From: an uncultured delta proteobacterium
GTDB taxonomy: Bacteria; Myxococcota_A; UBA9160; SMWR01
Direction: 5' to 3'
DNA: 64,000 bases
NCBI GenBank assembly: GCA_963832165.1
Contig: CAWHTE010000004.1
Span: 160,001 to 224,000 of the forward strand
This document shows, piece after piece, positions 45,096 through 49,475 of this stretch. The translations under genes were made by a program, and so were the position numbers. Within the stretch, counting starts at the first letter, position 1; the number at the start of each line of letters is the position of its first letter. The notes beneath the pieces are model-generated. The model saw only the letters and a program-made list of their open reading frames with translations, was not told the origin of the DNA and searched no databases.

Positions 45096-47588
<2,493 letters not shown>

Positions 47589-47596
47589 CCGCCTCC

Positions 47597-47672
47597 GGGC
47601 GCGTAGCTCAGCTGGTAGAGCGCCTCGCTTACACCGAGGAAGTCGGCGGTTCGAGCCCGTCCGCGCCCACCA
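47597..47672 (+). tRNA. tRNA-Val(TAC)
   Basis: GGGCGCG/CGCGCCC, CCTCG-CTTACAC-CGAGG, encoded CCA. Confidence 0.95.
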
Positions 47673-48134
47673 TCAGTTCTCCGGGATGTCGCGGTCCAGC
47701 ACGGTGCGGCGGCCTTCGCGCTGGGCGCTGCGGATCGCCTGATCACAGACGCGGCGCACGATCTCGGAGAGCGGGCCGAGCACGCGGTCGGAGGTGTTGT
47801 AGCCGGACTTCGCGCGGATGTAGTCCTTGAGCCGGGTCGTGATGATCAGCACGTCGTCGGTCCCGGGCGCAGGCGCTGCGGGCGCGCTGCCGGACCGCAC
47901 GATTCTGCGCTGTCCGGTGCGCTCGGGGCCGGACTCCTCGCGAGCGGGCGCAACGCGCTCCTCGGCCCAGGCCTCGCGGTGACGCGCGACCGGCAGGTGC
48001 GCGTCCCAGCAGCTCACGGTGCAGAACGCGAGGCCCGTGCGCTTCTGGTTGCACGTGGACACGCTGCAGACCCAGTAGGTGGCCCCGAATCCGATCGGGT
48101 TCTTGCACGCGCTGCAGCGCCGCCAATCCGCCAT
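47673..48134 (-). CDS. Bacterial histone-fold protein with N-terminal ZZ-type zinc finger
   Basis: ATG 48134 after GGGAGGTG; C-x2-C-x12-C-x4-C-x9-C-x3-C-x3-H-x5-H, then [13 protein letters not shown]...NTS...LSEIVRRVC...[14 protein letters not shown]. Confidence 0.85.
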
Positions 48135-48227
48135 GTCACCTCCCTCGAAGCGCGAAAAACCTACCGCGCTTGAGGTCCGGCCGCGCCTCTGAGAAGATCG
48201 CGGCTGCGCCTGCGCCAGAGGGGCCCC

Positions 48228-49475
48228 ATGTCGGCAGACCTCGCCACACTCGACATCATCAGCAACGACACCTACGCGCAGAACGGATATCCGCACGACG
48301 CCTGGGCGCGCCTGCGCCGCGAGGATCCGATCCACTGGAACGACCGCAACATCATCAATCCGTTCTGGGCGGTCACGAAGCACGCGGACATCGTCTGGAT
48401 CTCGAAGCAGCCCGAGCGATTCCTGAACGGCCCGCGCCTCGCAGCGTTTCCCGAGTTCACGCCTCCCGAGGGCACTGGGCCCGTGGTGGTGCGCCACCTG
48501 CTCAACATGGATCCGCCCGACCACGCGCTGTTCCGCAAGCTCGCGAGCCACCGGTTCACGCCGCGCGGGCTCGAGCGGATGCGCCGTGACATCGATCAGA
48601 TCACTCGCGACCTGCTCGACGAGATGATGGGCGACGGCGGAGCCCAGCAGGGCGACTTCGTGGAGCGCCTTTCGGGCCCGCTGCCGCTCCAGGTGCTCGC
48701 AGAGCTCCTCGGCGTTCCGCGCGACATGTGGCCGACGATGTTCGACTGGACCAATCGTGTGATCGGCTCGGCAGACCCCGAGTACCAGCAAGCCGGCGAC
48801 GACGCATTCCGCACCGCGCAGAAGGCGCGGCTGTCGCTGTTCGGATACTTCGCCGAGATGGCGCGCGAGCGCCGAGCCAAGCCGACCGACGACATCGTGA
48901 GTCTGGTCGCCAACGCGCAGCTCGACGGCAATGCGCTGCCCGAGCGCGAGCTGCTCTCGTTCTATTTCCTGCTCGTCGTCGCGGGCAACGAGACCACGCG
49001 CAACGCGATGACGGGCGGCCTGCTCGCGTTCCTCGAGCATCCCGAGCAGTGGGATCGCCTGCGTCGCGAACCGGCGCGGTTGGACACGGCCGTCGAAGAG
49101 ATCGTGCGCTGGACGACGCCGGTGATCCAGTTCTGCCGCACCGCGACCGAGGACGTCGAGATCCGCGACAAGAAGATCCGCCGCGGCGAGAACCTGTGTC
49201 TGTTCTATCCCTCGGCGAACCGCGACGAGGAGGTGTTCGACGATCCGTTCTCGTTCCGGATCGACCGCAAGCCGAACCGCCACCTCGCGTTCGGGATCGG
49301 CGAGCACTTCTGCCTCGGCGCGAATCTCGCGCGGCTCGAGCTGCGTGTGGTGTTCCGCCATCTCGCCGCGCGACTCGCGGAATGCGAGCTCGCCGGGCCG
49401 ATCGAGCGGCTGCGCTCGAGCTTCGTGGGTGGGATCAAGCGCATGCCGATCCGGTATCGGCTCACAGGGGCCTAG
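48228..49475 (+). CDS. Cytochrome P450 (CYP125/142-like)
   Basis: MDPPDH, AGNETT, EEIVR, FGIGEHFCLG. Confidence 0.92.
   Translation: MSADLATLDIISNDTYAQNGYPHDAWARLRREDPIHWNDRNIINPFWAVTKHADIVWISKQPERFLNGPRLAAFPEFTPPEGTGPVVVRHLLNMDPPDHALFRKLASHRFTPRGLERMRRDIDQITRDLLDEMMGDGGAQQGDFVERLSGPLPLQVLAELLGVPRDMWPTMFDWTNRVIGSADPEYQQAGDDAFRTAQKARLSLFGYFAEMARERRAKPTDDIVSLVANAQLDGNALPERELLSFYFLLVVAGNETTRNAMTGGLLAFLEHPEQWDRLRREPARLDTAVEEIVRWTTPVIQFCRTATEDVEIRDKKIRRGENLCLFYPSANRDEEVFDDPFSFRIDRKPNRHLAFGIGEHFCLGANLARLELRVVFRHLAARLAECELAGPIERLRSSFVGGIKRMPIRYRLTGA

Follow-up and report, generated by a model that had tools for sequence, protein, structure and literature searches.

A probable ZZ histone, with a two-zinc finger ahead of a short-α3 histone fold, in a soil Myxococcota genome

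A 153-codon gene on the minus strand of the window (the whole 64,000-nucleotide stretch of contig CAWHTE010000004.1 analyzed here; gene at 47673–48134) probably encodes a ZZ histone. As judged from homology and structural models, the product would be an HBb/Bd0055-type histone with a short third helix (α3), preceded by an N-terminal two-zinc cross-brace finger and a flexible linker. The protein is another member of an already published family and not the discovery of a new one. Bacterial histones have been accepted only recently, and to our knowledge those studied at the bench are HBb and HLp, with none from the zinc-finger class. To the ZZ histones the window adds one from soil Myxococcota, in a lineage where almost all genomes carry the gene, and three features now lend themselves to testing: the conserved motif in the linker, the finger-fold-fold doublets that occur in nature, and strict co-occurrence with a second histone in one order. 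These are modest additions to the known family. If the finger turns out to be a docking module, ZZ histones would be a case of histone-plus-reader logic in bacteria.

The gene ends with a TGA stop codon at 47673–47675, and its translation gives the 153-residue protein that had been described by an earlier reading of the DNA letters without database searches (the sequence-only reading). The minus strand upstream reads AGGGAGGTGAC-ATG, in which the Shine-Dalgarno core GGAGG (48139–48143) lies 4 nt before the start codon, in agreement with the strong ribosome-binding site noted in that reading. The start at 48134 is consistent with the alignment of 43 relatives, whose starts fall 0–17 residues before the conserved Trp4. 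The same frame is open much further upstream, and the enclosing ORF encodes 562 aa (47673–49361, minus strand). The 562-aa ORF is spurious because its upstream part, a non-coding extension of 1.2 kb (48135–49361), is antisense to a divergently oriented cytochrome P450 gene (48228–49475, plus strand; 415 aa; Pfam PF00067, E = 7.3e-26). The extension also has an antisense-type composition (GC1 0.88, GC3 0.68), and the view that the histone gene is hidden in a spurious long ORF was thus correct. GC3 was 0.92 in the 153-codon gene versus 0.95 in lon and 0.89 in the P450 gene, at a window GC content of 69.5%. Scans for promoter and terminator consensus sequences around the histone gene returned no site. 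The encoded protein is basic throughout, with a pI of 9.3 for the whole protein, 8.7 for the finger (nine Lys and Arg residues) and 9.6 for the linker.

The assignment to the histones is carried by the C-terminal domain (residues 94–150; 47685–47855, minus strand). A phmmer search against PDB sequences matched these residues to HBb/Bd0055 (PDB 8cmp and 8fvx) with an E-value of 4.5e-8, and more weakly to 9qt0 (E = 0.008), a chain labelled DUF1931 domain-containing protein that is HLp. An AlphaFold2 model built on 43 relatives had a mean pLDDT of 86, with values of 89–96 across residues 101–150, and contained helix α1 at residues 99–110, α2 at 116–139 and a single-turn α3 at 147–149. When the full-length model was compared with the PDB by Foldseek, HBb was the top match (E = 1.4e-4, TM 0.86–0.89, rmsd 1.2 Å, 36% identity), followed by HLp and then archaeal HTkC. 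The VIA-align wide search, which is independent of Foldseek, returned the same three proteins with Z-scores of 8.9 for HBb, 8.2 for HLp and 8.0 for HTkC, and all other chains, including every nucleosomal, TAF or NF-Y histone, had Z-scores of 6.0 or below. The sequence-only reading had claimed a C-terminal histone domain and had proposed a check by AlphaFold and Foldseek against Bd0055; the check yielded a three-helix histone fold, and sequence and structure searches both place HBb at the top. General histone profiles recognized the domain only in part: Pfam CBFD_NFYB_HMF (PF00808) scored 13.5 bits against a cut-off of 21.4 and NCBIfam archaea_histone (NF043032) 20.4 bits against a cut-off of 50, each matching only residues 122–150. 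Sub-threshold PF00808 matches were present in 18 of the 43 relatives.

The RxTxxxxD motif is present as R142-R-T144-VLDR-D149, with R142 and D149 forming the RD clamp. In the available text of the HBb study (PMC11317129), α3 is a single turn, the clamp is R51-D58, and the DNA contacts are N22, R57, S9, T53, T8, S24, K10, K12, K52 and K16. With the constant offset of 91 in the phmmer alignment, these contacts map to N113, R148, T100, T144, T99, S115, R101, K103, R143 and R107, respectively, and the clamp maps to R142-D149. Six of the ten positions are identical and four are conservative Lys/Arg or Ser/Thr swaps. R142 and T144 never vary among the 43 relatives, and conservation reaches 90% or more at N113, S115, K103, R148 and D149. 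Given the kept HBb contacts, the conserved residues and the RxTxxxxD motif, the predicted fold is that of a "bacterial dimer" α3 histone and the DNA-binding surface most probably is as well. The window protein and HBb (PDB 8CMP, 8FVX, 9EZZ and 9F0E) are 36% identical over 57 residues and are alike in the modelled fold, the one-turn α3, the RD clamp and the ten DNA-contact positions. They differ in that HBb consists of about 60 residues with neither finger nor linker, whereas the window protein carries 93 additional N-terminal residues; at 153 residues, including this finger and linker, it is too long for the class of stand-alone, dimer-only histones that HBb typifies. In Bdellovibrio bacteriovorus, HBb is highly expressed and probably essential. 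We had expected the finger to be more conserved than the fold, and this expectation was dropped when the mean pairwise identities were 0.54 for the finger and 0.51 for the fold.

The N-terminal finger (residues 4–63; 47946–48125, minus strand) contains eight ligands, C7, C10, C23, C28, C38, C42, H46 and H52, spaced as C7-x2-C10, C23-x4-C28, C38-x3-C42 and H46-x5-H52. We infer two zinc sites, C7/C10/C38/C42 and C23/C28/H46/H52. In 43 sequences, C7, C10, C23 and C28 are invariant and C38, C42, H46 and H52 are at least 90% conserved, and all eight are invariant in the 32 finger sequences; the sequence-only reading had likewise counted eight Cys/His ligands. Other conserved features are W4, S8, K11, a C-S-V-S-T-C-N knuckle, F37 and a tail past the last His. 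Modelled alone by AlphaFold2, the finger had a pLDDT of 89, with strands at residues 3–6, 13–15, 19–23 and 57–61 and a helix at 40–50.

By structure, the finger resembles ZZ domains. The first non-histone Foldseek match of the full-length model was the ZZ domain of p62 (E = 0.037, probability 0.98), and among the matches listed for the finger alone at ranks 1–14, all were ZZ domains (p62, BIG, HERC2 and KCMF1), at E-values of 0.18–0.73 with none at or below 1e-3. The p62 structure 5yph matched the finger with Foldseek probabilities of 0.93–0.98. In the VIA-align wide search, where Z-scores of up to 5.0 are in a range common for small domains, ZZZ3 (6e86) scored 4.1, HERC2 (6ww3), p62 and EP300 (7vhy) 3.9, the ZZ domain of CPEB1 3.8 and BIG within 3.8–4.1. 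Above this set were chains of RSC, Nbr1 and SAGA (Z 4.5–5.0), whose aligned regions we take to be ZZ domains. MYM/TRASH fingers appeared only at Foldseek rank 23 and VIA-align rank 32. By sequence, the ZZ domain was not recognizable: with Pfam ZZ (PF00569), all 43 family members went unmatched at E ≤ 1, as did the window protein at E ≤ 10. The weak Pfam matches of the finger were to zf-FLZ in seven and zf-FCS in two of the 43 members, and to C1_2 and DUF7576. A profile of the 32 fingers found nothing significant among PDB sequences, with the MYM-type 2das at E = 0.32. In the ESM Atlas, the nearest clusters to the finger were unnamed Myxococcota proteins of 69–78 aa at a borderline score of 0.90. 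The models thus suggest a ZZ-like cross-brace with weak structural scores, and the ZZ-type finger claimed earlier is upheld at this level, by its C4 plus C2H2 ligand set and its best structural matches. As modelled, the finger has the two-zinc cross-brace fold in common with eukaryotic ZZ domains (p62/SQSTM1, HERC2, ZZZ3, p300, BIG, PRT1 and KCMF1) but differs in the lack of a match at the sequence level and in a conserved C-terminal extension, modelled as the extra strand 57–61. A search for fusions of the finger to other domains, of a kind whose negatives carry little weight, returned a single protein of more than 268 aa; it contains a luciferase-like domain and may stem from two genes called as one.

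This combination of domains corresponds to the ZZ histones of Schwab et al. (2024, Nat Commun 15:7950, PMC11390915), which in the available text consist of a ZZ-type finger with C4 and C2H2 sites followed by a bacterial-dimer-like histone. The eight ligands, the ZZ-like structural matches, the short-α3 fold and the RxTxxxxD motif, which are the defining features tested, were all found in the window protein. Compared with what that text gives, the finger ligand set, linker, short-α3 fold and motif are the same and nothing essential differs, and the lineage fits as well, in that Myxococcota and Bdellovibrionota belong to the former 'Proteobacteria'. The earlier claim of a little-characterized family of ZZ-finger/histone fusions is in line with this published architecture, and a literature search by term returned computational treatments of ZZ histones only. 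For the Haliangium ochraceum protein D0LYE7, the text (PMC11390915) prints C20, C23, C51 and C53 as the C4 site and C36, C41, H59 and H65 as the C2H2 site. Seven of the eight finger ligands coincide with these printed positions at a constant offset of 13. The exception is the fourth Cys of the C4 site, which forms a CxxxC in every sequence seen, including a Haliangiales MAG, and lies two residues later than in the D0LYE7 print; the printed number may be a slip, or D0LYE7 may differ. By description only, the window protein can also be likened to Bd3044 of B. bacteriovorus (Hocher et al. 2023, PMC10627809), a longer, less conserved and less abundant second histone-fold protein found in 37% of Bdellovibrionota genomes.

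The two domains are connected by a low-complexity linker of Ala, Pro and charged residues (residues 64–93; 47856–47945, minus strand), as the sequence-only reading had described it, and it is predicted to be disordered (pLDDT 55–64 over residues 71–100). Linker length was 14–98 aa, with a median of 49.5, in 68 intact finger-fold representatives. Within the linker lies R76-R77-I78-V79 (47898–47909, minus strand), which fits the motif [KR][KR][IVLT][IVL]. This motif occurred in 42 of 101 representatives at 50% identity with the finger-then-fold order, against a mean of 1.1 and a maximum of 5 in shuffled linkers. It was also present in 113 of 120 close homologs and in 51 of 78 two-domain genome loci, including Bdellovibrio, Pseudobdellovibrionaceae, Haliangiales and Kofleriaceae bins. 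Its distance to both domains is variable, as in a short linear motif. In their main text, Schwab et al. (PMC11390915) make no mention of an RR[IV][IV] linker motif.

To survey domain architectures, profiles of both domains were run over the best 150 of 617 cluster representatives. Finger-fold was the most frequent architecture (68/150), and 12 representatives carried a second fold after the first (finger-fold-fold), incomplete in one case. Four were fold-fold, 37 had the finger only, many of them surely short-contig fragments, and 29 had other partial architectures. Because finger-fold-fold and fold-fold forms occur, in which the tandem folds would pair with each other, homodimerization of the single-fold form is supported. 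Searches by term in the main texts of Schwab et al. and of a 2026 review of double histone folds found no mention of these tandem forms.

A search of a set of 5.8 billion proteins returned 1781 homologs at E ≤ 1e-3, the best 120 of which were full-length with 64–89% identity. Named homologs among the best listed were annotated as "hypothetical protein" or, twice, as "histone H3/H4" and came from Myxococcota or "Deltaproteobacteria" MAGs. Among representatives of 50%-identity clusters, an exhaustive search matched 617 at E ≤ 1e-3, of which 395 passed a threshold of E ≤ 1e-10. A species-level genome scan gave 135 confirmed loci, of which 80 were kept. By bin labels, some of which are plainly wrong, these loci were mostly from Myxococcota (Kofleriaceae, Nannocystaceae, Haliangiales and Sandaracinaceae) and otherwise from Bdellovibrionota (Bdellovibrio, Pseudobdellovibrionaceae and Oligoflexia). 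Relatives found by tblastn included one in a MAG labelled Haliangiales (L069, 48% identity) and two in MAGs labelled Bdellovibrio sp. (L050, 52%; L062, 49%). Of 151 genomes sampled from the phylum, 40 were matched by a ZZ-histone profile. Within the soil Myxococcota order of the source genome, almost every genome has the gene, with a match in 22 of the 23 others, 18 full-length and four partial through contig-end cuts or stops. The sole genome of the order with no match is 2.2 Mb in size and 91% complete.

The sequence-only reading had proposed a search of the genome for a stand-alone histone partner, and this search was successful. The source genome (5.5 Mb in 11 contigs, 89% complete) contains one ZZ histone and, at C1:848639–848848 (L012:1501–1710), a stand-alone histone of 69 aa with its own GGAGG site. 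The 69-aa protein scored 42.7 bits against Pfam PF00808, over the cut-off. A profile of this protein and 16 orthologues matched histone H3, Methanopyrus kandleri HMk, HmvA and HPhA at about 1e-8, and it is therefore a canonical-type histone and not one of the HBb type. In hhalign, it was related to the ZZ-histone fold with 94.7% probability, and its α2 is longer by four residues. Among the 151 genomes of the phylum, the canonical small histone was found in 18, all from the same order or one sister family. Each of the 18 order genomes whose ZZ histone is full-length also had a second histone-fold match, which was the canonical small histone in 12 and a short HBb-like ORF in six, all of family f4. 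This order-wide co-occurrence compares with 50% of all ZZ-histone proteomes in the available text of Schwab et al. 2024 (PMC11390915); the genomes of the order are kin, and the co-occurrence is a pattern rather than a statistic. Complex prediction with the full ZZ histone and the 69-aa histone gave a score of 0.11 where the mark was 0.32, which we counted neither for nor against an interaction. A second weak match in the genome (C4:559748–560017, E = 0.012) was dismissed as a long GC-rich frame with no fitting short ORF.

From homology and models, a mechanism can be proposed. The C-terminal folds of two protomers would pair into an HBb-like dimer, as suggested by homology and by the natural tandem-fold relatives. 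The available text on HBb reports crystal structures and bending data for a protein that dimerizes via its fold, binds the DNA backbone at minor grooves independently of sequence and bends DNA (PMC11317129). Considering the kept HBb contacts, the dimer formed by the window protein would likewise bind the backbone at minor grooves without sequence preference and bend the DNA, using T99, T100, R101, K103 and R107 at the N-terminus of α1, N113 and S115 in loop 1, and R143, T144 and R148 in loop 2 and α3. Each protomer would then hold its two-zinc finger at the end of a tether, about 30 residues long and containing the RRIV motif. Most likely, although by inference only, the finger would serve for docking and connect the dimer on the DNA with another macromolecule, and the protein would accordingly act as a low-copy adaptor or bridging histone rather than a bulk packaging protein. 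We tentatively lean towards a protein or peptide as the partner of the finger, with the linker motif and the co-occurring second histone as candidates, and consider a nucleic acid partner possible but less likely.

Eukaryotic ZZ domains dock histone H3 tails, and by analogy the finger may read peptides or partner proteins. This analogy is weakened by a reservation of Schwab et al., who in the available text doubt that the finger reads histone tails since residues of the ZZ peptide pocket are not conserved (PMC11390915). An extension of the analogy, which we regard as quite unlikely, is a two-histone system in which the finger docks a peptide and thereby cross-links DNA-bound dimers into a regulated bridging network; candidate peptides would be the RR[IV][IV] motif in the linker of a neighboring dimer or a segment of the co-occurring stand-alone histone. 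Were it true, a bacterial histone-reader module would be built into the histone itself.

Alternative explanations concern both the identity of the protein and its role. Spurious long ORFs are common in this 69.5% GC genome, where 32 ORFs of at least 40 aa overlap one 4-kb span and the 562-aa frame surrounding the gene is itself spurious, and the 153-codon frame might likewise be open by chance and encode nothing. That reading is practically inconceivable: it is refuted by homology, with 1781 homologs and full-length best matches, and the coding-type GC3, the GGAGG site, the confident fold predictions and the conserved ligands speak against it as well. The ZZ assignment of the finger is less secure. 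The finger might be an independent bacterial cross-brace or treble-clef finger with no homology to eukaryotic ZZ domains, such as a CxxC...FCxxxC core of the FCS/MYM kind into which a second site was inserted, in which case 'ZZ' would be merely a fold-level label without functional meaning. The failure of Pfam ZZ across the family at E ≤ 1, sequence hints only to FCS/FLZ/MYM-type fingers, Foldseek E-values no lower than 0.037 (full-length model) and 0.18 (finger alone), VIA-align Z-scores of at most 5.0 and the unconserved ZZ pocket residues reported in the available text of Schwab et al. (PMC11390915) would all fit such an origin. However, the order and spacing of the ligands suit a two-site cross-brace as in ZZ, ZZ domains head two independent structure searches, and MYM/TRASH fingers rank low in both, so that we judge the non-homologous origin unlikely.

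As to its role, the protein might be a bulk nucleoid-packaging histone like HBb in Bdellovibrio, with the finger and the RRIV linker as further means of DNA binding or self-association, through which DNA is bridged or condensed and no partner is recruited. Some FCS/MYM-type fingers bind nucleic acids, and the weak resemblance of the finger to this group (zf-FLZ, zf-FCS and 2das) is compatible with such a role, as are the kept HBb DNA-contact residues, the basic pI of the whole protein, finger and linker, and the near-universal presence of the gene in its order. On the other hand, the ZZ histone of B. bacteriovorus HD100 has very low mRNA and protein levels according to the available text of Schwab et al. 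(PMC11390915), Bd3044 is the less abundant histone in that organism (PMC10627809), and the separate small histone with its strong ribosome-binding site could do the bulk packaging in the present genome. Because of the low expression of the Bdellovibrio member and the presence of the separate small histone, we favor, on a rough and still tentative estimate, the adaptor or bridging role, and regard bulk packaging as doubtful. A further alternative takes the protein for a zinc-finger protein that keeps its histone fold for dimerization alone, the fold having lost DNA binding as has been proposed for DUF1931 proteins. Schwab et al. caution in the available text that histone-fold proteins need not all organize genomes (PMC11390915), and the domain weakly matched the DUF1931-labelled chain 9qt0. 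This chain, however, is the DNA-binding histone HLp, and the window protein keeps all ten HBb DNA contacts together with the RxTxxxxD motif, which the family conserves as well, making loss of DNA binding very improbable.

The gene lies downstream of the co-directional run tig, clpP, clpX, lon and tRNA-Val, convergent with the run and divergent from the P450 gene. ARAGORN placed a tRNA-Val(tac) at 47597–47672 on the plus strand, and its encoded CCA (47670–47672) directly adjoins the histone stop codon, exactly as the sequence-only reading had it. Relatives do not share the zero-base gap: in L013 and L015, the two close relatives that could be aligned, about 45–55 nt separate the stop codon from the tRNA, a spacer cleanly missing here. 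The abutment is therefore either a deletion at this locus or a product of the assembly, and no function is evident for it. No public contig aligned to the window bridges the junction, which rests on this assembly. In two RNA-labelled soil runs examined over 47300–48700, contigs covered only the conserved end of lon and the tRNA; these runs share few words with the window, so that the missing coverage of the histone gene has no bearing on its expression. A role of the ZZ finger in N-degron recognition, hinted at by the adjacency to lon and clpXP, was dropped as a candidate because the adjacency is not conserved: the lon, tRNA-Val and P450 flanks were found only in the three closest of the 80 genome loci. 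No gene neighbor was conserved family-wide, with no neighbor cluster in more than 10 of the 80 loci, as clustered with a crude ORF caller that recovered the histone itself in only 40 of them. Recurrent neighbors were lineage-specific and included a trypsin-like protease, a beta-lactamase-fold protein, a hydrolase, a PPTase and RecQ/topoisomerase.

The linker joining the two-zinc finger of the ZZ histone to its HBb-type histone fold is otherwise variable and disordered, and within it a short motif of the RR[IV][IV] type is conserved (window positions 47898-47909, minus strand). The motif also occurs in the relatives P0123, P0125, L014, L050, L069 and others. Among ZZ-histone representatives, 42 of 101 carry it, where approximately one was expected from shuffled linkers; for genome loci, spread over Myxococcota and Bdellovibrionota, the figure is 51 of 78.

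Natural doublets were also found, in which a single ZZ finger is followed by two HBb-type histone folds in tandem. This finger-fold-fold architecture is present in proteins P0122, P0124, P0127, P0128, P0135, P0138 and P0153, while P0220 and P0224 carry the tandem folds without a finger; a natural doublet is also encoded in genome G063 (contig C87:5327-5974). Term searches of the main texts of the ZZ-histone family paper (Schwab et al. 2024, PMC11390915) and of a 2026 review on double histone folds returned no doublet forms.

The genome encodes a second, stand-alone histone outside the window (P0121, 69 aa; L012:1501-1710, plus strand, equal to contig C1:848639-848848), whose gene is preceded by a GGAGG site of its own. 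By profile, P0121 is classified as a canonical-type (H3/HMk/HPhA-like) rather than an HBb-type histone. Its orthologues were found in 18 of 151 sampled phylum genomes, only in the order of the window organism and one sister family.

In close relatives, a spacer of ~45-55 nt separates the histone stop codon from tRNA-Val (L013:5459-5504, L015:3255-3310). This spacer is cleanly missing at window positions 47670-47675, so that no terminator could fit between the two convergent genes. None of the public contigs aligned to the window, which came from two RNA-labelled soil runs, bridged this junction. In the public gene call of a close relative (P0165, 191 aa), the N-terminus is extended by a long stretch of antisense-P450 type, as in window ORF 47673-49361 (minus strand), indicating that automatic annotation of the ZZ-histone gene is prone to over-extension in high-GC genomes.

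In the Figure 4 legend of PMC11390915, the last of the four Cys ligands in the C4 site is given as C53 (C43, HMM numbering), whereas the CxxxC spacing in every sequence examined (alignments A1, of 43 ZZ histones, and A2, of 32 fingers) predicts C55 (C45, HMM numbering of that paper). The mismatch may reflect an error in the printed numbering, or D0LYE7, the paper's Haliangium ochraceum example, may itself be unusual. Myxococcota may also encode ZZ-like fingers on their own, not fused to a histone fold: the candidates are ORFs of 107-116 aa in genomes G115 (C65:10186-10344) and G150 (C14:79719-79886). Further finger-only candidates are Myxococcota proteins in ESM Atlas clusters (69-78 aa), whose match to the finger is borderline (score 0.90).
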